Source of the DNA: Chloroflexota bacterium
GTDB lineage: Bacteria > Chloroflexota > Dormibacteria > CF-121
Direction: 5' to 3'
DNA: 64,000 nt
NCBI GenBank assembly: GCA_005880615.1
Contig: VBID01000116.1
Coordinates: 1,494 to 65,493, forward strand
A model generated the notes under the pieces. It made no database searches. It was not told where the DNA came from and saw only the letters and a program-made list of their open reading frames with translations. The translations under genes and the position numbers were made by a program. Shown in pieces: positions 11,320 to 40,714 of the stretch; the first letter of the stretch is position 1, and each line of letters starts with the position of its first letter.

Positions 11320-12504
11320 CTAGAGGATCTGCTTCAGCTTGGAGTCGAGCACATCCTGGTCCAGGGTGAATGGCCAGTAGGTGCTCACGGTCCCGTCGCG
11401 GGCGATGAAGACGCTGACCGGCAGCCCGGAGGTCTTGAGCCCGACCCCGTACGCGTCGGCCACCCGGCCACCCGGATCCAGGGCCGGCGCCGGCTGGAGG
11501 CCCATCGAGTCCCAGAAGGCGCGGACCGTGTCGGCCGACTCATCGCCGAAGTCGACGGCGACGACCGCCAATCCCTGGTCGCGGTGGGCGAGGTAGGCCG
11601 ACCGGATCAGCGGCAACTCCTGGCGGCAGGGTGCGCACCAGGTGGCCCAGAAGGTGACCAGGACCGGCTTGCCCTTCAGTCCCGCCAGGCTCACGGGTTG
11701 GCCGTTGAGGTCCGTGAGGCTGAACGCCGGGGCACGCTGGCCCGCTTTGAGCGGCGCGGCCACGGTGGTGGCCGGCAGCGAGACGATCGGCTGGGGAGTA
11801 TCGAAGTACGGAATCATGGAGTTCAAGGCGGTCAGCCGGTTGGTGAAGATGAGCACCCCCATGCCAATCAGGAAGACGGCCGCCACCGCGTTGATGGCAC
11901 CGTACGCGCCGCGAATCCGGCTCAGCGCTTGCATGATGACGCCCGAGAGGCCGGCCGCCAGCAGGAAGGGGATGCCCAGACCAGCCGAGTAGGTGGCCAG
12001 CAGGATGGCGCCCTGGCCGGCCGTGTTGCTGGCACCGGCACGAATCAAGATGGCCGCCAGGATCGGCCCGACGCAGGGGGTCCACCCGACGGCGAAGGCC
12101 AGCCCGACCAGGTAGGCGGTCCATGGCGCTCGGGGCAGGCGATGGGCGATGTCCAGCCGGCGCTCTTGCATCAGCCAGGGAATCCTCCAGATGCCCAGCA
12201 ACGCGACGCCCAGCACGATCAGGGCCACCCCTGCCACCTGCAGCAGGACGGGGCGGAAGGCCTTGATGTCGGCTCCCAGGAGGCCGGCCGAGGCGCCCAA
12301 TGCCACGAAGGCGGTGCTGAAGCCGAGGACGAAGAGGAATGCATTGCCCAGGACGCGCGCCTGCTGCCGGATCCCTGGCTGGGGCGAGCCGGCGGCGACC
12401 TGCCCGCCCATGTAGGCCACATAGGCGGGCACCAGGGGCAGCACGCAGGTGGACGCGAAGGAGAGCAAGCCGGCGACGAAGGCCAGGCCGAGATCGACGA
12501 TCAT
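11320..12504 (-). CDS. ccdA: Cytochrome c biogenesis / thiol-disulfide membrane protein: CcdA(DsbD-core)-TlpA-like thioredoxin fusion
   Basis: Polytopic N-terminal domain with the conserved Cys pair (STCVLP...TPCVGP). C-terminal thioredoxin-like domain with WCAPC. Confidence 0.85.
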   Translation of the reverse strand: MIVDLGLAFVAGLLSFASTCVLPLVPAYVAYMGGQVAAGSPQPGIRQQARVLGNAFLFVLGFSTAFVALGASAGLLGADIKAFRPVLLQVAGVALIVLGVALLGIWRIPWLMQERRLDIAHRLPRAPWTAYLVGLAFAVGWTPCVGPILAAILIRAGASNTAGQGAILLATYSAGLGIPFLLAAGLSGVIMQALSRIRGAYGAINAVAAVFLIGMGVLIFTNRLTALNSMIPYFDTPQPIVSLPATTVAAPLKAGQRAPAFSLTDLNGQPVSLAGLKGKPVLVTFWATWCAPCRQELPLIRSAYLAHRDQGLAVVAVDFGDESADTVRAFWDSMGLQPAPALDPGGRVADAYGVGLKTSGLPVSVFIARDGTVSTYWPFTLDQDVLDSKLKQIL

Positions 12505-12520
12505 CGGACGACTAGCTTAG

Positions 12521-12754
12521 TTAGACTCGCCGCTCCTCCGTGGGCAGCTTTCGGACCCAGGCCCGCAGGCGCGCTGGGGCCTCGTCCTGGCAGCACTCCT
12601 TGCGGACCAGTCGCTTCAGGCCAGCCTGCAGCTCAAAGATCTGCAGACAGGGCGGGCAGTCGTCCAGGTGCCGCTGCACCTCTCCCAGTTCGCCGGCGGT
12701 CAGCTCCCGGTCGACGAAGGCGTTCAGCTGGTCGCCGCATTCGTTGCAGTTCAC
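12521..12754 (-). CDS. Anti-sigma factor, ZAS family (RsrA-like)
   Basis: 77 aa. HLDDCPPC matches the H-x3-C-x2-C zinc-binding ZAS motif. Overlaps the sigma factor gene by 4 nt. Confidence 0.8.
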   Translation of the reverse strand: MNCNECGDQLNAFVDRELTAGELGEVQRHLDDCPPCLQIFELQAGLKRLVRKECCQDEAPARLRAWVRKLPTEERRV

Positions 12755-13377
12755 GAAACCCCGCCTCCAATCGCGGCCGCCTGAGGCTGCCGCCCGGAAT
12801 ACTCCCAGAGCTTCTTTTGCAGGCTCCGCCGACCGCGGTGCAGGCGCGACATCACGGTGCCGATCTTGATGCCCAGGATCTTGGCGACCTCCTTATAAGA
12901 GAAGTCTTCCACATCGACCAGGATCACCACCATCCGCATCGGGACCGGGAGCTCCTCCAGCGCCCGCCGGACTTCGTTGCCGAAGCCGCGCTCCACGATC
13001 AGCTGCTCGGGCGTCATCAGGTGGAGGGGCAGGCCCTCGCGCTCCAGCTGCTGATAGATGTAAGCGTCGTTGGACGGCTCATCGATGGATTCCTGGATGG
13101 GCGGGCGCTGGCGCAGCTTGTTCCGAAAGACATTGGTCATGATGGTGAAGAGCCACGCCTTTTCGTTGGTTCCAGGCGTGAACCGCTTCCGATAGCGAAA
13201 GGCTCGCAAATACGTCTCCTGCACGAGATCTTCGGCGTCTTCCGGCTTGCGTGTTAGCCGCAGCGCGCTGCGATACAGCGCATCGAGATGGCGCTCGAAT
13301 ACCGTGAAATCGTCATTCTGTTCAACGCGGGAGCCGGCCGTTCTATTCCGATCCTCGGTGCCGGTGGCGGGAGTCAT
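12751..13377 (-). CDS. ECF sigma factor (SigR/SigH-like)
   Basis: Sigma-70 region 2 (DLVQETYLRAF) and region 4 (EVAKILGIKIGTVMSRLHRGR). Start set at the ATG (MTPATGTEDR...) that overlaps the upstream ORF stop (ATGA). The long RP-rich in-frame extension is rejected. Confidence 0.85.
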   Translation of the reverse strand: MTPATGTEDRNRTAGSRVEQNDDFTVFERHLDALYRSALRLTRKPEDAEDLVQETYLRAFRYRKRFTPGTNEKAWLFTIMTNVFRNKLRQRPPIQESIDEPSNDAYIYQQLEREGLPLHLMTPEQLIVERGFGNEVRRALEELPVPMRMVVILVDVEDFSYKEVAKILGIKIGTVMSRLHRGRRSLQKKLWEYSGRQPQAAAIGGGVS

Positions 13378-13949
13378 GGGGCTGGCGATGGGCCACTCCG
13401 CGGCGGGCCGCCGCGTCGCCTTCCGCGGCGCCGTCCGCGCCGGCGTCCGGGTCCGCCCTCGCCTCCCTGACCGGGCGGGCCGCCCTGGCCTGGCCCCGGA
13501 CCTGGCTGCTGACCGGGCCTGGACTGGGGCCGCGGTGGCCGGGGTTGCCGCGGTGCACGCGGCTCGTTGCGCTGGGGTCGCTGGCTGCCTGCGTCCGGAC
13601 GCGGCGTCTGTTGTCCCTCGGGCCGCGGCGGGCCGCCTCGACCGCGACGACCGCGCCGCCGGCCGCGTTCGTCCGGCTCTGCTCGGCGGGTGGGGGCCGG
13701 GACCAGCCGGTCCAGGCCCTTCGGTCGCCGGCGCCGGATCAGGGAGCCCTGTTGATTGGGACTGGCATCGGATTGCTGGACGCGATCGGTGAACTCGGCC
13801 AGCCATTCCTCAAGGGGGCGTTTGATCTGCGGCTTCGGCGCCCGCGGCACTTCGGGCCAGACCCGCGGCCGATCGGGGACGATCGTTTCCGGCGGGCTCA
13901 GGTCCTCGTTCAGGATCTCGGACTGTGTCGGCGGCTCCAGCTCGGGCAT
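13374..13949 (-). CDS. Hypothetical Arg/Pro/Gly-rich disordered basic protein, translationally coupled to the ECF sigma gene
   Basis: N-terminus MPELEPPTQSEILNEDLSPPETIVPDRPRVWPEVP is non-repetitive; the rest is an R/G/P-rich tail. Its TGA overlaps the sigma ATG. The 5' end overlaps the tail of the upstream gene in another frame, so the exact start is uncertain. Confidence 0.4.
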   Translation of the reverse strand: MPELEPPTQSEILNEDLSPPETIVPDRPRVWPEVPRAPKPQIKRPLEEWLAEFTDRVQQSDASPNQQGSLIRRRRPKGLDRLVPAPTRRAEPDERGRRRGRRGRGGPPRPEGQQTPRPDAGSQRPQRNEPRAPRQPRPPRPQSRPGQQPGPGPGQGGPPGQGGEGGPGRRRGRRRGRRRGGPPRSGPSPAP

Positions 13950-14736
13950 CTCCCAGCATGTTAGCGGGCAGGCCTTCCCATTCCACCAGGAAACGGCGCC
14001 GGAAGCGAAGCAGGGCCGCCACCACCGGTTGTCCCAAAAGCAGAATCAGGATGGCGTTGCCTCCGGCCCGAAAACTGTCATACACGAGCGAGGTGGCCAC
14101 GTAGAAGGTGCCGAACCGGCGCAGCAGCTCAGCCGGCGGCAGGCCCGCCGCCCAGCTGATGGAGGTGGACTGCCCCCCCACGAAGAGCGGCCATTGCCAC
14201 AGGTCGAGTAGGGCGCCAAAAGCAAAGCCACTGGCGATGCCCCAGCCGGCCAGCACCAGCATGGGCGGCCGTGACAGGCGCCGGCCCATCGCTGACCCAA
14301 CCAATCCGGCCCCGGCGCCCACCCAGCCGCAGCCCAGCATCTGGTACGGCAGCCAGGGGCCGAACCCGGCGGTGAAGACCGCCGACAGGAGCAACGTCAG
14401 CGCTCCCATGGCAAAGCCGATGCCGGGACCAAAAACGTATCCGCAGACCAGGATGAGGAAAAAGATGGGCGAGAACCCGGCCACGCCGACGACCGCGGCC
14501 AGCCGCAGGGCCGCATCCACCGCGATCAGGGCGGCCAGCACCGCGGCCAGGCGTGCCGACAGCCGATGCGTCTGCAGCGCCAGCGCCAGCAACAGCGCGA
14601 CCGCGGCGACCACAAACGAGACCAGCAAGCCGGTGGAGGCGCGCGGACCCGACCAGAGGGGAAGCACGAAGGCGCCCAGGCCGGCGAGGCTGACCAGTCC
14701 GAAGACGATGGGCTCGACCGGCCGGGTCAGGGTCAT
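13810..14736 (-). CDS. Polytopic membrane protein, ECF-transporter substrate-capture (S) component-like
   Basis: About 7 TM helices and a low-complexity C-terminal tail. Last gene of the EcfT/EcfA operon downstream of a cobalamin riboswitch. Confidence 0.55.
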   Translation of the reverse strand: MTLTRPVEPIVFGLVSLAGLGAFVLPLWSGPRASTGLLVSFVVAAVALLLALALQTHRLSARLAAVLAALIAVDAALRLAAVVGVAGFSPIFFLILVCGYVFGPGIGFAMGALTLLLSAVFTAGFGPWLPYQMLGCGWVGAGAGLVGSAMGRRLSRPPMLVLAGWGIASGFAFGALLDLWQWPLFVGGQSTSISWAAGLPPAELLRRFGTFYVATSLVYDSFRAGGNAILILLLGQPVVAALLRFRRRFLVEWEGLPANMLGDARAGAADTVRDPERGPEPAGNDRPRSAAGLARSAAGAEAADQTPP

Positions 14737-16256
14737 CCGGGTGATGGCAGGGGAACCTCATCGGGGAGGAGCCAGCCCTTCCCCAGCAATTTGTTGACCT
14801 GCGTGGCGAAGACCAGCGAGTCCGTCAGGACGGCCCGGGGAGCGCCCTCGGCATAGATGGCGCCTTCCGACATCAGCGCCACCCGGTCGGCGGCGCGGGC
14901 CGCCCACTCCACGTCGTGGGTGGCGATCAGGATGCTGGCACCGGCATCGGCGCGAACCCGCAGGTAGGCGGCCAGGTTGCGCTTGGCGTCCGGGTCGAGA
15001 CCGCGGGTGGGCTCATCCAGCAGGACCACGTCGGCTCGCCCTGCCGCCGCGGCAATCGCCACCCGTTGCCGTTCTCCGGTGCTCAGGTCGCGCGGATACC
15101 GGGGCAGCCAGTCCGCCACGCCCAGCGGCAGCATGGAACCTGGATGATCCTTGACCTCCTCCTGCACCGTGGGCGCGTAGAGCAGCGTGTCGGCATCCTG
15201 GGGGACGTAGGCGACCGTGCCCTGCCGGGTGACGCGACCGCGAGCCGGGCTTAAGAGGCCTGCGACCAGCTTCAGGAGCGTCGTCTTGCCCGAACCGTTG
15301 CGACCCATTAGGACTGCGATCTCACCACGGTGTAGGCGCAGCGAGGCGTCCCGCAGGGCAGGGGTCCCGTTGTAGTTGAAGGCCGCGCCCGCCACTTCGG
15401 CGGTGGACGCTGGCGGCGATACACGATCCACACGAGCGGCCTGGCCGAGCGTGGCCCGCAAGCCGGCCGCCGCCCGGCGCGCTTCGCCCAGGGTGATCGG
15501 GATGGGGTCCCATCCGGCTCGGACGGCCAGGTCGACAATCGGCGGCCGGGCCCCGCCCTCGCCCAACGCTACGCGAGGCGAGGCATCCGCGATGGGCGCC
15601 CCCGGAGCCGTCAGCGTAAAGACGCGATCGACGAAGGGCGCGATCCGTTCCACTCGATGCTCGGCGATGACGACGGTGAGCCCCAGCTCGCTGACCAGCC
15701 GGGCGAGCACCTGCAAGACGTCTTCGGCCGCCTGCGGATCGAGCTGCGAGGTCGGTTCATCCAGCGCCAGCACCGACGGATGGGTGACCAGGGTGGCGGC
15801 GATCGCTACCCGCTGCCGTTCCCCCCCCGAGAGGGTGCGAATCGCGCGATGGCGCAGGCCGGCGATGCCCACCTGGTCCAGGACTTCCTCCACCCGCTTG
15901 CGCATCAGCGGGCGGGGAAGGCCGAGATTCTCCAGGCCGAAGGCCAGCTCGGATTCGACGTCCTCCAGCACGAATTGCGCGTCGGGATGCTGGAAGACGA
16001 ACCCGACGTGGGCGCCGAGCTGGCGAGGCGGGACGGTCCGGGTGTCGAGGCCGTCGACCACCACGCGGCCACTGAAGTGGCCCCCACTGCTGTGCGGAAC
16101 CAGTCCGTTCAAGCAGCGGAGCAGCGTCGACTTACCGCTCCCAGACGGCCCACGAACCAGAATGACGTGCCCGGGGTCGATCCGGGCGGAGAAGTCGGCG
16201 ATCACCGGCTGCTCCGTCTCCGGGTAGCGGAAGGTCAGGCGGTCAAACGTGATCAA
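14733..16256 (-). CDS. ECF transporter ATPase with duplicated ABC domains (EcfA1-EcfA2 fusion)
   Basis: Two Walker A motifs (GPSGSGKST, GRNGSGKTT) and two signature/Walker B sets in 507 aa. Confidence 0.85.
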   Translation of the reverse strand: MITFDRLTFRYPETEQPVIADFSARIDPGHVILVRGPSGSGKSTLLRCLNGLVPHSSGGHFSGRVVVDGLDTRTVPPRQLGAHVGFVFQHPDAQFVLEDVESELAFGLENLGLPRPLMRKRVEEVLDQVGIAGLRHRAIRTLSGGERQRVAIAATLVTHPSVLALDEPTSQLDPQAAEDVLQVLARLVSELGLTVVIAEHRVERIAPFVDRVFTLTAPGAPIADASPRVALGEGGARPPIVDLAVRAGWDPIPITLGEARRAAAGLRATLGQAARVDRVSPPASTAEVAGAAFNYNGTPALRDASLRLHRGEIAVLMGRNGSGKTTLLKLVAGLLSPARGRVTRQGTVAYVPQDADTLLYAPTVQEEVKDHPGSMLPLGVADWLPRYPRDLSTGERQRVAIAAAAGRADVVLLDEPTRGLDPDAKRNLAAYLRVRADAGASILIATHDVEWAARAADRVALMSEGAIYAEGAPRAVLTDSLVFATQVNKLLGKGWLLPDEVPLPSPG

Positions 16257-17079
16257 CGGCAGCCCTACGACTGACCGCGTTCAGCCACGCGGGAATAGAG
16301 AGAGGAACCAACAACACGATCAGGGCGGTTTGCGGCAGCCCCGGTGCCAGCTGGAGGTAGGGGTCATACCCCGACGGCGCCAGCATCGTGGCGGCTAGCG
16401 CGCCGATGGCGCCCAGCAGGACCAGCCCGTCCGCCAGACCCCAGCGCGAGGGGTGGTAGCGCGTCCGGCGCTGGCACCCAAATCCGCGAGCGTCCAGGGA
16501 TTCGGCATATTGCAGCGCCCGCTCCAGGGTGGTGAGGAGGACCGGCAGCAGCAGGCCGAGCCCCGTTCTCCATCCGGCCCGCACGCCGCGTAGCCGGCGC
16601 GTTTCGCTCACCGCCTGCAGGGAGGCCAGGGCCTGGGGGACCAACGCCAGGGCCAGCGCGACCAGCGTTCCGAGTCGATAGAGCGGCCGGGGCAGCACCG
16701 CCAGGAGGTCGGCGGTCCGCAGCGCGGACTGGGCGATGGCGAACACCAGCACGGTTAGCAGCAGGGCGGCACCGGTGCTGGCCCCATACAGTGCAGCCTC
16801 CACAGTCCAGGCGCCGCCGATGACCGGGAGGTGCGAGGGGAGACGGAACAGCACGTGAGAACCGAAGCGGCTGAAGACCAGCGAGAACAGAATCGGCAGC
16901 AGGCCCAGGGCCAGGGCGGCGCGCCAGTATCCGATCGATCGGTCGTGCCGGGCCGCAATCCAGACGGTTAGCAGGATAGCGAGCAGCAGGAGCTGCAGAT
17001 AGGGATTGCGCTCCACGAGGGCGGCGGCGATCGCCGCCAGCGCCCAGGCGCACCACGTCAGCGGGTTGAGGCCGGTCAT
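16243..17079 (-). CDS. ECF transporter transmembrane component (EcfT/CbiQ family)
   Basis: Start set at MTGLNPLTW (ATG at the reverse complement of 17077-17079). The 228-aa upstream extension in the ORF track overlaps the next gene in another frame and is rejected. 5-6 TM helices. Confidence 0.7.
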   Translation of the reverse strand: MTGLNPLTWCAWALAAIAAALVERNPYLQLLLLAILLTVWIAARHDRSIGYWRAALALGLLPILFSLVFSRFGSHVLFRLPSHLPVIGGAWTVEAALYGASTGAALLLTVLVFAIAQSALRTADLLAVLPRPLYRLGTLVALALALVPQALASLQAVSETRRLRGVRAGWRTGLGLLLPVLLTTLERALQYAESLDARGFGCQRRTRYHPSRWGLADGLVLLGAIGALAATMLAPSGYDPYLQLAPGLPQTALIVLLVPLSIPAWLNAVSRRAAVDHV

Positions 17080-17774
17080 GGACCCCGTCGCAACAGGTTC
17101 CACGCACTGAGGCCGGCCAGCGCCAGCAGGCTCCCGCCCAGCGCGCCCAACGGTCCCGCGGCGGATGAGGATGACGGTGGCCTGGGGCTTGGTCTCGGCG
17201 TCGCCATGGCAACCGGTGTGCGGAGATCGGGTGATGAGGACGGCGATGGGAAGGGGGTTGGCGCCGCGGTCGGCGGGACCGTCGATGCGGTCGGTGTGCT
17301 GGCGGTTGGCCGCGGCGGCGGCGCGCAGATCTGCTCCACCGTCCAGGCGGGCAGCATCTGGCCGGCCCGGTCGCTGTAGAGCCATCCATCCATGTCCCCG
17401 TTGCGCAGGATCCATTCGCTGGCGCCCAGCTGAGACGGAACCCATCGACTCCCGGCTCTGTGCAAGTACTGCCAGTAGGGACCCGTGCCGAGACAGTTGG
17501 CCGGTACCGGCGAAGGCTCGCCGTCGAGCTGGCAGATGGCCTGACCCATAGACCCGTACGACTGTGCCTGGTAGGAAAGGCCCGAGCGCTGGATGAGCGC
17601 AAAGCCCGAGATCTGGTCCTCCACGAAGGTGACGCAGCGCGTCACCAGCCGTCCGCTGGCGTGCTCGATCACCAGGCCGGCCCGGTGGACGGCCGCGTGC
17701 GCGGGATGGCCAAGGACCACGGCGGCGGCGCCCACCAGGCCGACCGCCGCCAACACGCGCCAAAGGAGCCGCAA
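17076..17774 (-). CDS. Secreted DUF4430-like protein with Pro/Thr-rich linker and C-terminal hydrophobic anchor
   Basis: Signal peptide. C-terminal pattern WQYLHRAG...ILRNGDMDGWLY resembles the DUF4430 (transcobalamin-like) signature. The ATG overlaps the EcfT start region (ATGA coupling). Confidence 0.55.
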   Translation of the reverse strand: MRLLWRVLAAVGLVGAAAVVLGHPAHAAVHRAGLVIEHASGRLVTRCVTFVEDQISGFALIQRSGLSYQAQSYGSMGQAICQLDGEPSPVPANCLGTGPYWQYLHRAGSRWVPSQLGASEWILRNGDMDGWLYSDRAGQMLPAWTVEQICAPPPRPTASTPTASTVPPTAAPTPFPSPSSSPDLRTPVAMATPRPSPRPPSSSSAAGPLGALGGSLLALAGLSAWNLLRRGP

Positions 17775-17779
17775 TCCCT

Positions 17780-18856
17780 TCAGCCCCGTCGCAGAGTCCT
17801 CCGCAGCAGGAGTCCGAGCACGACCAGTCCGATGCCCAACGCCAGTGGCAGCGCCGGTTGACCCCCGGTCTGGGCCAGGTGGGGAGCGGATGGCGTCGGC
17901 GGACAGGCTGGGGACGTCCCCGCTTCAGAGCCGGAAGCCGGCTGCGTCAGCGGGCGCTCCGTGAACGCCGCCGGCGCCAGCGTCGTGGCGAACAGCTTAT
18001 CGCCGGCAGTGAGCGCGCCGGCGTCGGGACCGCTGGCGATTTGCTCACTGGCCAGGCTGGCCTCGGCGGCGGTGAGCATGTCCGACCAGGGCGCGGTGTG
18101 CCGGAGGCCGGCCGCCACGATGGCTTGGATGCCCAGCTCGTTGGAGTTGGGATCGGGGGTGGAGCCAAACGAGAAGAAGCCCCCGTTGGCGAACTGGGTC
18201 TTGAGGTAGGCGAAGCCATTCTGGATGGCGGGGTCGGCCGGCGAGACGCCGGCCGCGAGCAGCGCCTGCAGGACTATCGCCGTGGTGTTGGAATCGCTGC
18301 CGTATTTGCCGGCCGTATCGAAGCTCCAGCCACGGTCGGTCGGGTTCTGCTTGGCGCGCAGGAAGGGCACTGCCTCCGCCCCCAGTCGCTGGCCGACGGC
18401 GCGGAGCCCCAGGATGGCCAGGCCATCGCTAAAGATACTGCCGCCATACTGTCCCGGAGCCGCGGCGCAGGCCTGGAGATAGGCGGCGTTCAGCTGCGCG
18501 ATCAGGGGGGCGGTGGGACCGATGTCCGGCCAGGCGGCCCGGGCCAGTAACAATTCGCCGGCGGTTCCCACGTCGGTGGGGACGGCGGGCTTGAGGTAAT
18601 CGGCCAGCGACGCGGTTCCGTCCTTGAAGGTGGCAGGGTCCTGCGAGGTGGCGGCCAGGCTGAGCGCGATCTCGGCCGAGCGGGCCAGCGGGTTCTCTGG
18701 CGCGGCGCCCACTTGCCCCGTGGTCTTGTCCTGCTGGGTCAGTAACCAGGCAACGGCGGCCTGCGCCCGGGTCGGAGCCGGCTGGGCCGCGGCCGGAATG
18801 GACTGGGTCGCGACGACGATGACAGCGCCGATGGCGGCGAGTGTGATCCGACGCAT
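17780..18856 (-). CDS. Secreted prenyltransferase/squalene-oxidase-repeat (terpene-cyclase-fold) protein with C-terminal LAQTG sorting signal
   Basis: Start at MRRITLAAIGAVIVVATQSIPAAA (signal peptide; GGAGG RBS 9 nt upstream). C-terminus LAQTG followed by a hydrophobic stretch and RRTLRRG, i.e. an LAxTG sortase-type cell-wall sorting signal. Confidence 0.55.
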   Translation of the reverse strand: MRRITLAAIGAVIVVATQSIPAAAQPAPTRAQAAVAWLLTQQDKTTGQVGAAPENPLARSAEIALSLAATSQDPATFKDGTASLADYLKPAVPTDVGTAGELLLARAAWPDIGPTAPLIAQLNAAYLQACAAAPGQYGGSIFSDGLAILGLRAVGQRLGAEAVPFLRAKQNPTDRGWSFDTAGKYGSDSNTTAIVLQALLAAGVSPADPAIQNGFAYLKTQFANGGFFSFGSTPDPNSNELGIQAIVAAGLRHTAPWSDMLTAAEASLASEQIASGPDAGALTAGDKLFATTLAPAAFTERPLTQPASGSEAGTSPACPPTPSAPHLAQTGGQPALPLALGIGLVVLGLLLRRTLRRG

Positions 18857-18984
18857 AGAAACCTCCAGGGAAGTAATGACCGCTGGAGGCCGATCGGAGT
18901 GCAAACAAAAAGCTCCCAATCCTTCCGAAGGGGAGCCGAAGATGTTGTGTGCATCTCCCTCTCAGCCTCGAAGAGGGTCGACGT

Positions 18985-19135
18985 CGAATCCCGGCAGGCA
19001 GGTCTCCTGGCTTCTGGATCGGCGCACCTCGCGACTCCTTCCCAAGGCCTTCGCCTCAGTGGACCGCTGTCGGAGGGCTCCCCAGTCACAGTGACGGGTT
19101 CGCGCCGGAATCGCACCGGCTTCCCTTTTCAGCTC
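18985..19135 (-). promoter_or_regulatory. Cobalamin (B12) riboswitch in the leader of the ECF/DUF4430 operon
   Basis: The minus strand reads AAGGGAAGCCGGTGCGATTCCGGCGCGAACCCGTCACTGTGACTGGGGAGCC ... AAGCCAGGAGACCTGCCTGCC. This matches the conserved GGGAA/GGTG-AATCC/CCCG-ACTGT core and the B12 box (AGCCAGGAGACCTGCC). Confidence 0.8.
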
Positions 19136-19294
19136 GTGTGAGCCACCTGTCGAGCTATTCAGTTGTGTGACCGACGACAGGCACCACCTCCCCTTCCATT
19201 GAGAGCCGGCCTTGTAAGGGCGCCATTATATCCCCTCCGGAAACGAAAACGCCGGCCGTTGGGCCGGCGTTCAACCGTAGGCGCTGATCGATTC

Positions 19295-20166: not shown

Positions 20167-20607
20167 CTAGCACCGCTCGGAGTGGAGCCATGAGCGCGAG
20201 GCGACCAGGTCGTAGAGCTGCCGCTGCTGCCGCCGCGTCAGGTGACCGTAGAGTTGCCCGGCCACCTGGGCCTGGATGGGGAGCAAGCGCTGCTGCATGC
20301 GGCGGCCGGCCAGGGTGAGAGAGACGGGCTTGTAGCGCCGGTCGCCGTCGGCGGCGGATCGGGTGATGAGCCGGCGTCGCTCCAACCGGCGCAACAGCGA
20401 GGTCAGGTTACTGACATCGCAATGCAGGGCCCTGGCCAGCGCCGATTGCGCCACGCCCTCGTCGGATAGGGCCAGCAGCACGCGCATCTGGGCGACCGTC
20501 AGGCGAAGCCGATGCAGCTTCACGGCCGTCTCGTGGTCGGCCGCGATCGCCAACTCCGCGAGTCGGTTGGCGATCAGCGCGGTCAGGCCGGGTTTCGGGC
20601 GTGCCAC
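20167..20607 (-). CDS. MarR family transcriptional regulator
   Basis: Winged-helix MarR C-terminal 147 aa (LTVAQMRVLLALSDEGVAQSALARALHCDVSNLTSLLRRLERRRLITR). GTG start assumed. The 484-aa track ORF is an upstream read-through. Confidence 0.7.
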   Translation of the reverse strand: MARPKPGLTALIANRLAELAIAADHETAVKLHRLRLTVAQMRVLLALSDEGVAQSALARALHCDVSNLTSLLRRLERRRLITRSAADGDRRYKPVSLTLAGRRMQQRLLPIQAQVAGQLYGHLTRRQQRQLYDLVASRSWLHSERC

Positions 20608-20640
20608 AAGCTTGTTAGACCCAGCGGGATAATACCGGCA

Positions 20641-22395
20641 ATGGCGTACCTGGCGAGCGAGGAGCAACCCCATCCGGCGCGCGAGAGCGTGGAGGTCTAC
20701 GTGCGGACCTACAACACGCTGCTGCGCAGCTCCGGCGAAACTAAGATCCGGGTGCTGGAGCAGACCCACATCGGCATGGGCTCCAGCCTTCACCCGAAGG
20801 CGGGCGAGCCGGAGGTCGATGCCGGCGCCTTCATTTACGCGCTGCGCCGCTTGCCGCCCTGCATGATGAGCGTCCGGCGGGTCATCCTCGGCCAGTCGGC
20901 CGAGCTTTTCGAGCGGATGCTGCACGTCGACGTCGCAAGCTGGGAGATGCAGAGTGCCCCGGGACGCCGGCGGCGCTATTACTACGACGGTCGCGAGACC
21001 CTGGCGGCCTTTATTGCCAGCCCCTCCGACGTGGACGACATGGTGCCCCAGCTGGTGGCCTTCCAGATCGAATGGAACAAGATGCACGAGCTGCTGCAGC
21101 CCGAGGAGCTGCCCGCCGGCATGCCGGTCCCGGAGCAGCTGGCCCTGGCCGAGCGCCTGGGCATCTCCGAGGGCGACTGGATCCGGCTGGAGGAGATCTG
21201 GGGTCCCGACCTCCTCCGCAGCCTGCAAGCGATCAAAGTGGAAGAGAAGAACTGCACCATCCGGATGCTGGGCGGCACCCAGGTCGGGTACTCGAAGACC
21301 ACCCGGCGCTGGTGGGAGCCGATCCAGTCGCTGCTCCGAACCGAAGGCCTGGAGGGTCGCCCCATCTACTTTGTGTCCAGCAACACCCACAGCCTGGTCA
21401 ACCTGCTCAGCGGCTCGGCTCGCCGCCACCAGGACGAGATCGTGAAGTTCATCGAGCAGACGAACAACCTGGAGCTGGTGCCGGAGCTGCGCAAGCTCCG
21501 CCAGCGCCAGTCGCGGGGCAACTGGGACAACTTCCTGTACTACGCCGCCCGCGTCTACTACGGACAGTCGCCAGACGCCACCAGGCTGCGGGCTGCCCGT
21601 ACCCAGGAGGAGGAGCAGCACGGTATCTACTTCCTGGCCAGCCGGGCCGGGCTCGACGTGGCCGCCCAGGTGATGGTGCTGGACCGGCTGGACGCCTCTG
21701 CCCTGGATCCGCGCCTAGGGCATCCGGCGAGCGAGCGATTGCGCCAGTCGCCCGCCGTCATCCTCAACATCAACTATCCGCTGGGGCAGGCCTCGTACAA
21801 CATCCTGCGAGTGGTCACCGAGAGCATCGACCAGCTGCGGGGCGTCTATGTATTGGGGAAAGCGGCCACGCTCAACGCCAGCATCGGGGACATCATGATC
21901 TCGAATGTGGTCTACGACGAGCATTCCGAGAACACCTACTGGCTGGACAACTGCTTCAGCTTCAACAGCGTGGCGCCCTTCCTGGTGTACGGGTCGGCGC
22001 TGGACAACCAGCGGGCGGTGACCGTACGCGGCACGTTTCTGCAGAATCGCGGATACCTCGACTTCTATCACCGCGAAAGCTTCACGGTCGTGGAAATGGA
22101 AGCCGGCCCCTTCCTCGATGCCATTTACGAGACCAGCGAGTCGTCCCGCTATCCGGTGCGGGAGAACATCAACTTCACCCGGCTGCCCTTCGACGTGGGG
22201 GTCCTGCACTACGCCTCTGACACGCCGTACACTCAGGCCCGCACGCTGGGGGCTCGGGGGCTCTCCTATTACGGGCTGGACTCGACCTATGCCTCATCGG
22301 CCGCCATCCTCCGGCGGATCTGGGCCCAGGAACATGTGCTGGACTCGGAGCTGGAGCCGGCCTGGACGGAGGCGGAGTCCCCGCCGGGGGCGTAA
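20641..22395 (+). CDS. Two-domain protein: unknown N-terminal domain fused to a PNP/MTAP-type nucleoside phosphorylase or nucleosidase domain (AMP-nucleosidase-like architecture)
   Basis: Start at ATG 20641 (MAYLASEEQ...). C-terminal half has the PNP_UDP_1 pattern, including VVEMEAGPF (EME motif). Divergently transcribed from the MarR gene. Confidence 0.55.
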   Translation: MAYLASEEQPHPARESVEVYVRTYNTLLRSSGETKIRVLEQTHIGMGSSLHPKAGEPEVDAGAFIYALRRLPPCMMSVRRVILGQSAELFERMLHVDVASWEMQSAPGRRRRYYYDGRETLAAFIASPSDVDDMVPQLVAFQIEWNKMHELLQPEELPAGMPVPEQLALAERLGISEGDWIRLEEIWGPDLLRSLQAIKVEEKNCTIRMLGGTQVGYSKTTRRWWEPIQSLLRTEGLEGRPIYFVSSNTHSLVNLLSGSARRHQDEIVKFIEQTNNLELVPELRKLRQRQSRGNWDNFLYYAARVYYGQSPDATRLRAARTQEEEQHGIYFLASRAGLDVAAQVMVLDRLDASALDPRLGHPASERLRQSPAVILNINYPLGQASYNILRVVTESIDQLRGVYVLGKAATLNASIGDIMISNVVYDEHSENTYWLDNCFSFNSVAPFLVYGSALDNQRAVTVRGTFLQNRGYLDFYHRESFTVVEMEAGPFLDAIYETSESSRYPVRENINFTRLPFDVGVLHYASDTPYTQARTLGARGLSYYGLDSTYASSAAILRRIWAQEHVLDSELEPAWTEAESPPGA

Positions 22396-37387: not shown

Positions 37388-38995
37388 CTAGATCCCGCTG
37401 TGCCAGACGGTGGAACCCAGGACGTGGATCCAGGTGAGCCCGGTGTCCAGCGTGATCGGGTCCCCGTCCGGCGTGTAGTAGGCCGCCGGCACGTCGGGGT
37501 CGGCATGCTGCCAAGTGGCGTGGATCACGATGCCATTGACGTAGACCTCGGCCGGCCCCTCCCCGGTCAACTCGTAAGCCTCCGTGTGGTAGCAGTGCCC
37601 CATGGAGCAGAAGGTGTTGGCGGGATTGGTGTCCAGGAAGGAGGTCACGTGCTCCACGATGACCGTCTTGGCGTGCACCTGGCCCGTCCCCATATTGATC
37701 ATGGGCGCCCCGTCCTGCCACTTCAGGTATTCCTTCCGGACCGGGTCGTATTTCCAGACCGCGTCCTGGTCCGGGACGATGATGGCCGTCGCCGGGTCCC
37801 CGCTATGGGCGGCATCGTCGTGCTTGGGCGCGATTTCGTACAGGGGCCCCGGCACGTTCTTCGCCGCGGCGAAGTTGGTGGCATTGGCCCCGTGGATCAT
37901 CACGTTGTGGGGCGCCCACCGGTCGGGCGTCCGGAAGAAGACGTTGCCCTGGCCGTAGCTGAAGTCGTTGACCAGGTCCGGGTGCTGCCAGACCTTGCCC
38001 AGGACGTAGTCGTTGGCTCCGGAGCAGTAGATGAAGCCCTTGTACATCAGCTCCAGCCGGATGGTGATCAGGCGGCAGCTGCGAATGGGGCCGACCAGGA
38101 CCGGCAGGGGGTGCCAGTACACGGCCGTCAGGCGTGGCACGGACCCTTCGCTCAGGTACTCATAGATCATGTCGGCTTGCTGCATGCCGGCTTGCGGCCG
38201 CGCGTCCAGGCTGTTTTCGATCTGCATCAGGATGGGCGCTCCCGACCCAATCCGGCTGGGGTCGCCGGCCGACGGAACCTCCAGGACGGTGGTGAAGCTC
38301 AGCGTCCAGTCCGCCAGGAACGGATCGTGCTTGCGGTTGAGCGCTTGCTGCGACACCCCCAGCACGTAGGGCTTGCTGTGCTTGAGGGTCAGATCCAGAG
38401 TGGCGGTGAGCCCGTCGCCGGACCACTGCACCTGGCCGGCTGGCACCGGCTTGCTGTCCAGCAGGAGGGGCGTGCGGACGCTGTCCATCGCCTGAGTGAA
38501 GGCGATGGCCAGCTTGCCGTGCACCGGGACGAACTGGGCCGCATCTTTGAGCGGCTGATTATCAAATCGGACGGCGGCCACCGTGGGCGCCGCCTCGGTC
38601 CGAAACGTCAAGCTCCGGGTGACGGTGCCGCTCCCGGAGGCCTCCCTGGCTCCGGTGAGCACCACGTGGTAGGTGGTCTCAGGCGTCATGGTGGGGGAGA
38701 ACTGGAACTCGCGCGGGCTCACCGTGGCGAAGGTCACCGGGACCGACGGCGTCATGGTGAAGCCCTGCTGGACTGAACTGGCCAGCATGTCCTTGTTGAA
38801 CTTGAAGTCGATACTCGCCGTCCGGGCGACGGCCTGGTCCCCGTCGGCGACGTTGGCGCTGACTTCCAGCGGCATGGTCAGCAGCCGGACGACGGCCGCC
38901 AGTCCGACCAGGACCAGCGGGATCACCCCCACCCACCACCGACGGCGCGCACCCTGCGCCAGGCTTATTGATCCGATCCGATGACGTGAACCCAT
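37388..38995 (-). CDS. DUF3048 (YerB-like) family secreted or membrane-anchored protein with N-terminal Ig-like region, paralog A
   Basis: 535 aa. Conserved blocks PRLTAVYWHP, GPIRSCRLIT, YCSGAND, APHNVMI and GTGQVHAKTVIVEHV are shared with the adjacent paralog and typical of DUF3048. Confidence 0.6.
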   Translation of the reverse strand: MGSRHRIGSISLAQGARRRWWVGVIPLVLVGLAAVVRLLTMPLEVSANVADGDQAVARTASIDFKFNKDMLASSVQQGFTMTPSVPVTFATVSPREFQFSPTMTPETTYHVVLTGAREASGSGTVTRSLTFRTEAAPTVAAVRFDNQPLKDAAQFVPVHGKLAIAFTQAMDSVRTPLLLDSKPVPAGQVQWSGDGLTATLDLTLKHSKPYVLGVSQQALNRKHDPFLADWTLSFTTVLEVPSAGDPSRIGSGAPILMQIENSLDARPQAGMQQADMIYEYLSEGSVPRLTAVYWHPLPVLVGPIRSCRLITIRLELMYKGFIYCSGANDYVLGKVWQHPDLVNDFSYGQGNVFFRTPDRWAPHNVMIHGANATNFAAAKNVPGPLYEIAPKHDDAAHSGDPATAIIVPDQDAVWKYDPVRKEYLKWQDGAPMINMGTGQVHAKTVIVEHVTSFLDTNPANTFCSMGHCYHTEAYELTGEGPAEVYVNGIVIHATWQHADPDVPAAYYTPDGDPITLDTGLTWIHVLGSTVWHSGI

Positions 38996-40560
38996 GTCAG
39001 CCCCGTGTTGAGATCGACGGGGTTGCCATCGGGCCCGTAGTAGACGACGGGTACAGTCCGATCAGGGTGGCGCCATGTGGCATGAATCACTCCTCCGTCT
39101 GAATAGATTTCGGCCGAGCCCTCCCCAGCGAGCTCGTAGTACTCGGTGTAGTAGTGGTGGAAGAAGTTCCCCGGGGTGGTGTCGATGCGTGAGCGGACGT
39201 GTTCGACGATGACGGTCTTGGCATGGACCTGGCCGGTCCCTGCGTTGGTAAAGGGGGCACCGTCCTGCCATTTGAAATACTCCTTGGCGCTGGCGTTGTA
39301 GCGCCAGATGGCGCCGTGCTGGGGCAGTGCGATGTCGGTGGCCGGGACGGCGCCCGGCAGCGGCGCATCCGGGTGCGCGGGGGCCACATCGTAGGGCAAA
39401 GGCCCCAGGGCGGCGGCCGTGCGCTGGGTGACCTGGTCCGGCCGGGCCATCACGTTGTGCGGCGCGGCTCGCGCATCCGTCCGGAACATGATGGGCAGCC
39501 AGTAGGCGTAGTCATACACGATGTTCGGATACTTCCAGACCTGGCCCAGCACGAAATCGTTGGCGCCAGAACAGTAGATCATGCCGTGGTACATCTGCTC
39601 CAGCTGGACCGTGATCAGGCGGCAGCTGCGGACCGGCCCGATCAAGCTGGTCGGAGGATGCCAGTAAACTGCGGTCAGGCGAGGAATGCCGTACTCGCTG
39701 ATGTACTCGTAGATCATGTCGGCCTGCTGCATCCCCGATTGCGGGCGGACGGTTGGCTGGCCGCTGTTCTCGATCTGGATGATCACCGGGCCATAGCCGC
39801 TCCCAATCCGGGCCGTGGAGCCCGCGGAGGGGACCTGGATCATGGTGGTGAATCCAACCTTCCAATCCGCGAGCAGCGGGTCGTGCCGGCGGTTCAACGC
39901 CTGCTGGGGGACCGAAACCGAGTGGAGCCGACTGTGGGCCAGGCTGATCGGAACCGAGGCCGTGGTGGAGGTGGGATCCCAGCGGATGCTAGTCGCGTCG
40001 ACCGGCGCGCCGTCGACCAGGATGGGCACGTGGCTGGCATCCATCGGTTGGGAGAAGGTAATGGCCAGCGTGCCGCGCAGCGGCACCGCCTGCTGTCCAT
40101 CCGAAAGCGGCGCTCCTTCCAGGCTCAGCCCGGTGATCTTGGGCGCCGGTTCGGTGTGAAAGCTGAACGCATAGGTGAGCCCGCCCAAACCGATCGCCTT
40201 CCGCAGCCCGGCCAGGTGAACGTGGTAGGTGGTGTCTGGCTCCAGTTGGGGCTTAAACAGGAAGTGGCGGGGATTGATCTGGGCGAGGGTGAAGGGCGCG
40301 GCGGGGTCGATGCTGACGCCCTGCCGCACCGATGGTTCGTTCATGTCCTGGTTGAAGGTGAAGTCGATGGCGGTGGTGCGGGCCACCTGCTGATCGCCAT
40401 CCGGAACGGTAGCGCCGACTGACAGCGGGGCCGTGGCGGTCCGCGCCCCGACCACCAGGACGGCGGCGAGCAGCGCCAGGGGGAGCAGCCACCAGCGACG
40501 GCGAAGGCGTTGGGTGAGGATCGGCGGAAACCGGGGCATCGAATCTCTGGAAGGGTACAC
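38965..40560 (-). CDS. DUF3048 (YerB-like) family protein, paralog B (overlaps paralog A by 31 nt)
   Basis: 531 aa, about 55-60% identical to paralog A with the same conserved blocks. Confidence 0.6.
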   Translation of the reverse strand: MYPSRDSMPRFPPILTQRLRRRWWLLPLALLAAVLVVGARTATAPLSVGATVPDGDQQVARTTAIDFTFNQDMNEPSVRQGVSIDPAAPFTLAQINPRHFLFKPQLEPDTTYHVHLAGLRKAIGLGGLTYAFSFHTEPAPKITGLSLEGAPLSDGQQAVPLRGTLAITFSQPMDASHVPILVDGAPVDATSIRWDPTSTTASVPISLAHSRLHSVSVPQQALNRRHDPLLADWKVGFTTMIQVPSAGSTARIGSGYGPVIIQIENSGQPTVRPQSGMQQADMIYEYISEYGIPRLTAVYWHPPTSLIGPVRSCRLITVQLEQMYHGMIYCSGANDFVLGQVWKYPNIVYDYAYWLPIMFRTDARAAPHNVMARPDQVTQRTAAALGPLPYDVAPAHPDAPLPGAVPATDIALPQHGAIWRYNASAKEYFKWQDGAPFTNAGTGQVHAKTVIVEHVRSRIDTTPGNFFHHYYTEYYELAGEGSAEIYSDGGVIHATWRHPDRTVPVVYYGPDGNPVDLNTGLTWVHVIGSDQ

Positions 40561-40714
40561 CAGGCCCCGCGGGAGGCCGATGCCGAACGCTACCGGAGGC
40601 GGCTCACCGGGTCAACGGGCCGGTCTGGCCCGCTTGGTGAGTGCGACGTGGACAGGTTTTTGCAGCGCCCCGCTGCCTGGTCTGCCAGCCTGCCTCCTGC
40701 CCGCGCTCCGAGCG

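Follow-up and report, generated by a model that had tools for sequence, protein, structure and literature searches.

A cobalamin-riboswitch operon of soil Dormibacterota predicted to join split transcobalamin-like surface proteins to an ECF transporter

The locus described here lies on contig VBID01000116.1, in a 64,000-nucleotide stretch (64 kb; hereafter the window, meaning the whole of the DNA that was analysed), and it raises the question of what a cobalamin riboswitch controls when the genes behind it encode two secreted proteins followed by an energy-coupling factor (ECF) transporter. Few microbes make vitamin B12, many scavenge it, and its capture in monoderm soil bacteria is poorly known. 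A first-pass annotation of the window had proposed surface B12 capture and ECF import under a B12 riboswitch, and this is still the best-supported reading: with reasonable confidence, the locus was assigned as a B12-repressed operon for the surface capture and ECF-dependent import of cobalamin or other corrinoids in a soil member of the Dormibacterota that has a peptidoglycan wall. The assignment is built on the riboswitch, the folds of the two secreted proteins, the order of the genes, the conservation of the riboswitch linkage among related loci and the occurrence of natural gene fusions.

Five minus-strand genes, designated g1 to g5, lie downstream of the riboswitch. Their description in the first-pass annotation as co-directional and partly overlapping was borne out by coordinates and junctions, and identical gene calls were present on the public source contig, a scaffold of 65.5 kb from a soil metagenome. 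The aptamer and genes are as follows.

18980-19165, minus strand: cobalamin riboswitch aptamer (RF00174; Rfam 114.3 bits, E 6.9e-28)
17780-18856, minus strand: g1, 358 aa, ATG start with GGAGG 8 nt upstream
17076-17774, minus strand: g2, 232 aa from TTG, or 226 aa from an alternative GTG
16243-17079, minus strand: g3, 278 aa, ATGA overlap with g2
14733-16256, minus strand: g4, 507 aa, 14-nt overlap with g3
13810-14736, minus strand: g5, 308 aa, ATGA overlap with g4

The presence of a cobalamin riboswitch, claimed earlier from the letters alone, was confirmed by the Rfam scan, in which the alignment was full-length (model positions 1-189) and the score of 114.3 bits compares with a gathering score of 31.5. 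The core strings (GGTGCGATTCC at 19117-19107 and CCCGTCACTGTGA at 19098-19086) and the B12 box (AGCCAGGAGACCTGCC at 19012-18997), all on the minus strand, were found at their coordinates as quoted. The span of about 18985-19135 given previously was correct in location but about 30 nt short at its 5' end, as RF00174 extends to 19165. The 5-nt spacing between g1 and g2, the ATGA junctions at g2/g3 and g4/g5 and the 14-nt g3/g4 overlap indicate translational coupling. Downstream of g5 a gap of 433 nt is followed by an unrelated cluster of extracytoplasmic function (ECF) sigma factor, anti-sigma factor and DsbD-thioredoxin genes, so that the operon most likely ends at g5.

Comparative genomics of the riboswitch in the lineage, which had been suggested for this locus, was carried out on 80 loci encoding relatives of g1, the toroid protein described below. 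Of these, 24 were from Dormibacterota (45-96% identity; homologues labelled Candidatus Dormibacteraeota or Dormiibacterota) and 56 from Chloroflexota (28-40%), the latter including Herpetosiphon (cultured species), Anaerolineae, Thermomicrobiales and Sphaerobacter. In 79 of the 80 loci a custom covariance model trained on 19 of these riboswitch elements gave a single match, which lies 5' of the toroid gene and on its strand; there were zero matches elsewhere in 1.06 Mb. The 80th locus, L069, starts inside the toroid gene and has no upstream DNA. Rfam likewise placed a cobalamin riboswitch upstream in all eight distant loci sampled. A strict regular expression for the B12 box recovered Dormibacterota elements only; Rfam and the custom covariance model were used in its place. 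Present in 79 of 80 loci, the linkage favours cobalamin as the ligand and is strong genomic evidence for cobalamin handling by bacterial pairs of toroid and beta-grasp proteins. Some of these loci (L001, L002, L008 and L012; 46-96% identical) sit in metagenome-assembled genomes labelled Limnocylindria, Eisenbacteria, Nitrosopolaris (an archaeon) and Sulfotelmatobacter, foreign labels that suggest binning or labelling errors.

What the first of the two secreted proteins might contribute was approached through its predicted structure. The AlphaFold model of g1, based on a 46-sequence alignment (predicted local distance difference test score, pLDDT, 88.3), shows a predicted alpha/alpha toroid of about twelve helices. 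When this model was compared with the PDB using Foldseek, single-domain enzymes resembling squalene-hopene cyclase (SHC) came on top (8pak, E 2.8e-5, template-modelling (TM) score 0.55; 8paj, E 3e-5), with cobalamin-loaded transcobalamin appearing from rank 4 (2bb6, E 1.1e-4) and haptocorrin lower. The g1 family profile matched squalene-hopene cyclase among PDB sequences (E 1e-7), SQHop_cyclase_C was matched by 22 of the 46 family members, and two Q-x(n)-G-[WF] (QW-like) motifs are present in g1 itself. As modelled, g1 has the alpha/alpha toroid with QW-like repeats that is used as a criterion for class II terpene cyclases. The terpene-cyclase fold proposed in the first-pass annotation was thus upheld by the model, by Foldseek and by the family profile, but not as Pfam membership: g1 alone had no Pfam match at E<=0.01, with SQHop_cyclase_C/N appearing only at a sub-threshold E of 0.05-0.08. 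Searches with single sequences gave no significant match for g1 or g2 in NCBIfam (SCO2322_fam, E 0.097) and none in the PDB. An exhaustive search with the g1 family profile returned 252 cluster representatives at E<=1e-30. Many of these carry two, three or four tandem toroid copies per polypeptide, and some are large (P0204, 1786 aa; P0213, 1505 aa; P0205-P0212, approximately 870-970 aa).

A plausible signal peptide (MRRITLAAIGAVIVVATQSIPAAAQ) can be read at the N-terminus of g1. At its C-terminus the protein ends in PHLAQTG, followed by 20 hydrophobic residues (GQPALPLALGIGLVVLGLLL) and then RRTLRRG. This succession of motif, hydrophobic stretch and positively charged tail fits the pattern of LAxTG proteins anchored by sortase (class E type), and g1 is predicted from it to be wall-sorted. 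The LAxTG signal, already recognised in the first-pass annotation, is kept in 24 of 24 Dormibacterota homologues, which all combine LA[QRP]TG (in one case LPQTG) with a transmembrane helix and an Arg-rich tail. Chloroflexota homologues carry LPxTG, LPxSG, LPVAG, a helix alone or no anchor. A class A penicillin-binding protein is encoded in the window, indicating that the organism makes peptidoglycan.

The second protein, g2, is laid out as a signal peptide (read from the sequence), a globular core, a Pro/Thr/Ser stalk of about 60 residues and a C-terminal membrane helix ending in RRGP, in agreement with its earlier description as secreted with a Pro/Thr linker. Homologues share this layout, their stalks varying between 60 and more than 200 aa in length, and four Cys are conserved in g2. 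The model has a pLDDT of approximately 82-98 over residues 30-160 and above 90 for most of 30-150. In Foldseek, its top 19 PDB fold matches consisted of the Ruminococcus gnavus protein 3u7z and of beta domains from transcobalamin, haptocorrin and intrinsic factor; the best was 5no0 (E 1.9e-5, TM score 0.74 on the target, root-mean-square deviation 2.7 Å), and the first unrelated match came only at E 0.018. In the model a helix at residues 57-64 is followed by two inserted strands, 68-72 and 78-83, forming a beta-hairpin. A two-strand insert after the helix is the defining trait of the transcobalamin-like clade of SLBB domains (PMC1796856), and g2, being secreted and having a predicted beta-hairpin in this position, has the features by which members of that clade within the SLBB beta-grasp superfamily are recognised. 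Its previous labelling as DUF4430-like held by fold, through the transcobalamin beta domains, but not by hidden Markov model: Pfam DUF4430 (PF14478) gave no match for g2 at E<=10 and none for 50 family members at E<=1. No model of the local Pfam library matched g2 or its 50 relatives, and the g2 family profile gave only low-complexity Pro/Thr matches among PDB sequences. The homologues P0084-P0202 carry the precomputed Pfam accession PF28005.1, a model outside the local Pfam library, and a few family members (P0124, P0191, P0198 and P0200) contain DUF11 repeats. The longer homologues, P0113 among them, were considered as toroid fusions and rejected, as they merely have longer stalks; no similarity to g1 was seen in P0125 (630 aa).

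Taken by their models, g1 is the predicted alpha half (the toroid) and g2 the predicted beta half (the beta-grasp domain) of a fold of transcobalamin type. Natural fusions in both orders, which are classic Rosetta-stone evidence, indicate that the two proteins function as a unit. P0196 (L084:1219-2850) is an alpha-then-beta fusion with 30% identity to g1 (E 3e-11) and 34% to g2 (E 3e-21); a riboswitch precedes it (E 2e-12) and a g5-like gene follows it. A second in-frame alpha-then-beta fusion is found at L070:7773-9362, while L062:1507-2601 and L075:1868-3418 are beta-then-alpha fusions, also in frame. All four fusion genes are preceded by a cobalamin riboswitch. The order toroid, SLBB, EcfT, EcfAA and S-component was seen in all Dormibacterota loci with a long enough contig, and most Chloroflexota loci retain toroid, SLBB, EcfT and EcfAA genes.

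The remaining three genes encode the transporter. EcfT and a fused EcfA1A2 had both been named in the first-pass annotation, and both were recovered: g3 is an EcfT of the CbiQ family (PF02361, E 1.4e-6, 28.6 bits against a cutoff of 25), and g4 is a fused EcfA-EcfA' ATPase with two PF00005 (ABC_tran) domains (E 7e-52). The latter scored 249.7 bits against TIGR01166 cbiO (cutoff 211.8) and 298 and 272 bits against ECF_ATPase_1 and ECF_ATPase_2, respectively, both of which are under their equivalog cutoffs. The polytopic S-like component reported previously, g5, can now be given a name. By itself it reached 22.7 bits against PF12822 (ECF_trnsprt), under the cutoff of 30.7, and 10 of 11 family members matched this model at E<=0.1 (best E 2e-14). 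A profile of the g5 family (11 homologues) matched chain A of 6FNP (CbrT, 182 aa) among PDB sequences at E 2.8e-9, profile positions 71-266 aligning with chain positions 6-175, and the second-best PDB match was a folate S-component at E 0.003. On this profile evidence the best-supported assignment of g5 is a CbrT-like ECF S-component predicted to bind and transport cobalamin or cobinamide. Its N-terminus is longer by about 60 residues, and its C-terminal tail is poorly conserved: the final 40 or so residues (13810-13950) are kept in close relatives only, homologues stopping near residue 270. This tail is overlapped in a different frame by an Arg/Pro-rich open reading frame (ORF) without family match (13374-13949), probably an artefact of high GC content.

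How the riboswitch might act on these genes was read from a computed fold of the leader. The following elements were placed around the aptamer and the ribosome-binding site (RBS) of g1.

19225-19230, minus strand: TATAAT, candidate -10 box of the operon promoter, an exact hexamer about 60 nt 5' of the aptamer
18857-18979, minus strand: expression platform, from the computed leader fold
18977-18957, minus strand: conserved hairpin CCCTCT..AGAGGG whose loop carries GAGGCTGAG, from the leader fold
18937-18912, minus strand: terminator-like hairpin GGCTCCC..GGGAGC, from the leader fold
18911-18903, minus strand: U tract TTTTTGTTT after the terminator-like hairpin
18895-18883, minus strand: anti-RBS GATCGGCCTCCAG facing the RBS, from the leader fold
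18868-18862, minus strand: RBS CTGGAGG of g1

As no complete sigma-70 site emerged from a scan for consensus promoters, TATAAT is a candidate only, and the leader hairpin was not picked up by a consensus terminator scan. In the computed fold GATCGGCCTCCAG has two possible partners, namely GAGGCTGAG or the RBS CTGGAGG. Nearly all of the 19 close relatives that were compared have the anti-RBS/RBS hairpin and the GAGGCTGAG element, the expression platform of L005 being too short, as extracted, to reveal the hairpin. By comparison, when the leaders (including L003-L023) were compared, the terminator-like hairpin with its U tract was seen only in the window and in L002, L009, L010 and L014. This distribution points to the terminator being an insertion, by which transcriptional control was added in a lineage-specific manner onto a translational riboswitch. 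The leader sequences of the close relatives were too invariant for covariation. We infer an OFF switch acting on translation, backed by termination in the lineage of the window, and the coupling to the aptamer and the exact helices are part of that inference.

Put together, these elements suggest the following course of events. At low intracellular cobalamin the RBS of g1 would be accessible and, in this lineage, the terminator-like hairpin would be read through; with cobalamin on the aptamer, the anti-RBS would pair with the RBS, the terminator would form and the operon would be off. Once exported, g1 would be attached to the wall by way of its LAQTG sorting signal, presumably after sortase processing, and g2 would be held at the membrane by its C-terminal helix below the flexible Pro/Thr stalk. 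By analogy with the alpha and beta domains of transcobalamin, the two proteins may form a heterodimer that binds B12 and sandwiches the corrinoid, which would then be handed to the CbrT-like g5 and imported with power from the dedicated EcfT (g3) and fused EcfA-A' (g4). It may be speculated that the distinct tethers provide a wall-level capture site (g1) and a mobile, membrane-bound lid (g2). More tentatively, and with somewhat more doubt than belief, the two-chain clamp could be an obligatory extracytoplasmic receptor for the ECF transporter, which belongs to a class defined by the lack of binding proteins of this sort, and such split proteins could be ancestral to the fused B12 carriers of animals.

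Several observations weigh against this account of B12 capture and import. Neither g1 nor g2 has sequence-level similarity to transcobalamin or DUF4430 in Pfam or in searches of family profiles against PDB sequences, and their apparent kinship to transcobalamin rests on predicted folds. A simple motif scan of the window found no convincing sortase, the one weak candidate being a TLATC in an unlikely overlapping ORF. Some Chloroflexota loci have no SLBB gene or no detectable S-component, which suggests that not every part is obligatory. In nine loci (L036, L043, L049, L054, L064, L067, L073, L076 and L078) the toroid gene stands directly before EcfT with no detectable SLBB gene, many Chloroflexota operons (for example L061:7740-12492) show no detectable CbrT-like S-component, and the Herpetosiphon loci L025, L027, L028, L032 and L040 have no adjacent ATPase. 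Full-text searches of the literature returned no report of B12 binding or transport for either protein family, and the sole counterpart studied experimentally, lsa1836-1840 of Lactobacillus sakei, was tied to heme uptake.

The absence of the SLBB gene from some related loci would also fit a reading in which g1 and g2 bind corrinoids at the surface without feeding the transporter, as a store or as competitive ("piracy") sequestration, while g5, like CbrT, binds free B12 itself. As a rule, ECF S-components do not depend on a binding protein outside the cytoplasm, and ECF-CbrT works without one (PMC5997447). However, g1 and g2 are strictly co-transcribed and translationally coupled with the ECF genes, the riboswitch always precedes the toroid gene, which is the first of the operon, and both proteins appear to be tethered to the cell that produces them. 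Sequestration without delivery was therefore considered unlikely, although it is the alternative that survives best.

A second possibility was that the imported substrate is heme, or some other non-corrin tetrapyrrole, and that the toroid and beta-grasp pair binds heme. Verplaetse et al. described the L. sakei genes lsa1836-1840 as encoding an S-component, fused ATPases, a T component, a beta-like protein and an alpha-like protein, all as separate genes, and deletion of this five-gene cluster cut heme accumulation, which complementation restored (bioRxiv 10.1101/864751). The L. sakei cluster and the operon of the window thus have the same five parts in one cluster. The L. sakei cluster differs in belonging to another phylum, in its heme assignment by mutant phenotypes and in having no reported B12 riboswitch; heme binding by its proteins was docked in silico only. 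In the present operon and in 79 of 80 relatives, by contrast, control is by a cobalamin riboswitch, and the S-component family is related to CbrT. As repression by cobalamin would serve no purpose in a heme importer, a role in heme uptake is hard to square with an invariant riboswitch and was judged improbable here. The riboswitch linkage also bears on the dispute over heme or B12 as the substrate of the L. sakei-type system.

It was also considered whether g1, instead of being a binding protein, catalyses a reaction as a terpene cyclase or prenyltransferase, with an envelope lipid or the corrinoid tail as its substrate. The weak hidden Markov model similarity to squalene-hopene cyclase domains and the SHC-like cyclases at the top of the Foldseek matches would agree with this. 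The DxDD motif of class II cyclases, however, is absent from g1 and from the invariant columns of its family, and no conserved Asp/Cys/His metal triad is found among those columns, which makes g1 a toroid without the catalytic signature of a cyclase. Moreover, g1 is extracytoplasmic and wall-anchored by prediction, remote from prenyl diphosphate substrates; the toroid is fused to a beta domain of B12-carrier type in relatives; and transcobalamin has the same fold without catalysis. An enzymatic role for g1 was accordingly regarded as very improbable. Import of cobalt or nickel for B12 synthesis by a module of CbiMNQO/NikMNQO type, in place of import of the finished cofactor, is just as improbable, given that the matches of g3 to the CbiQ family and of g4 to the cbiO subfamily, and the fact that cobalt transporters too are commonly under B12 riboswitches, stand against the lack of a CbiM or CbiN gene, an S-component of ECF_trnsprt/CbrT type and two accessory proteins with folds of organic-cofactor carriers.

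Returning to the capture and import of corrinoids, the locus belongs to a kind of system that was predicted computationally in 2007, and it is no new kind of system. Secreted SLBB domains of bacteria that resemble transcobalamin, in many cases joined to alpha/alpha toroids, with Gram-positive anchors and operons containing CbiO and CbiQ, were described by Burroughs, Balaji, Iyer and Aravind, who predicted a role in B12 scavenging (PMC1796856). The first-pass annotation had called the extracellular components poorly characterised, which is true of experiments but not of their architecture and B12-scavenging role, predicted in that work, nor of the L. sakei counterpart, which has been studied. 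Secreted SLBB domains with a beta-hairpin insert, association with toroids, surface anchors, a CbiO-like ATPase and a CbiQ-like membrane protein are common to the 2007 proteins and the present operon. The former were described as fused toroid-SLBB proteins, mainly from Firmicutes and archaea, with no riboswitch mentioned (PMC1796856), whereas in the Dormibacterota of the window the alpha and beta proteins are separate genes, with LAQTG wall sorting for alpha and a stalk plus transmembrane helix for beta, and come with an invariant cobalamin riboswitch and a CbrT-like S-component. What is newly added is the range across Dormibacterota and Chloroflexota, the riboswitch linkage in 79 of 80 loci, the kinship of the S-component to CbrT, the LAxTG and stalk-plus-helix anchoring and the existence of both fusion orders within one clade.

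The transporter itself can be compared with B12-specific ECF-CbrT of Lactobacillus delbrueckii, the crystal structure of which is 6FNP. In the work of Santos et al. (2018, PMC5997447), CbrT was produced together with an ECF module cloned on its own, and it does not require a partner outside the cell. The two are alike in the profile match of g5 (E 2.8e-9) and in an ECF architecture with T and A subunits. ECF-CbrT of L. delbrueckii reportedly uses a shared general ECF module. The operon of the window, in contrast, has a dedicated, co-encoded module with fused ATPases, a g5 that is longer by about 90 aa and two added surface proteins.

Among the animal carriers, transcobalamin, intrinsic factor and haptocorrin combine a toroid with a beta-grasp domain and came at or near the top of the structural matches for g1 and g2, and the alpha-then-beta order of transcobalamin is that of the fused P0196 and L070 proteins. 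Identity between g1 or g2 and the animal carriers is 13-17% in structural alignments, with no detectable sequence similarity. The animal proteins are single soluble polypeptides that deliver to a receptor, whereas those of the window are separate, cell-tethered chains for which delivery to an ECF transporter is proposed. In Bacteroides, the surface lipoproteins BtuG and BtuH are said to capture B12 for a dedicated transporter from a locus under B12-riboswitch control; they reportedly differ in having unrelated folds, in anchoring as outer-membrane lipoproteins and in delivering to the TonB-dependent BtuB. As small secreted targets, g1 and g2 allow two questions to be addressed: whether ECF transporters can use extracellular binding proteins, and whether a split bacterial prototype of transcobalamin exists.

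The surroundings of the operon were also surveyed. No other B12-related genes were found among ten further large ORFs of the window by Pfam, or among the neighbour annotations of the source contig. The cluster downstream of g5 (11320-13435, minus strand) comprises the ECF sigma factor, a zf-HC2 anti-sigma factor and a DsbD-TM/thioredoxin fusion, with an ABC-2 exporter pair next to it; ORF 12751-13806 is an over-extended version of the sigma factor gene, which encodes 208 aa. On the upstream side, a MarR-family regulator (20167-20640, minus strand) and a divergent gene for a DUF6909 protein of 584-627 aa (20512-22395, plus strand; E 1e-216, an almost full-length match) show no evident link to B12, and on the source contig a 128-aa ORF without family sits between the MarR gene and the riboswitch. 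Further away, at 37391-39061 and 38968-40611 (both minus strand), lie two adjacent paralogues, each with Big_5, DUF3048 and DUF3048_C domains, whose stop-to-stop frames overlap by about 90 nt.

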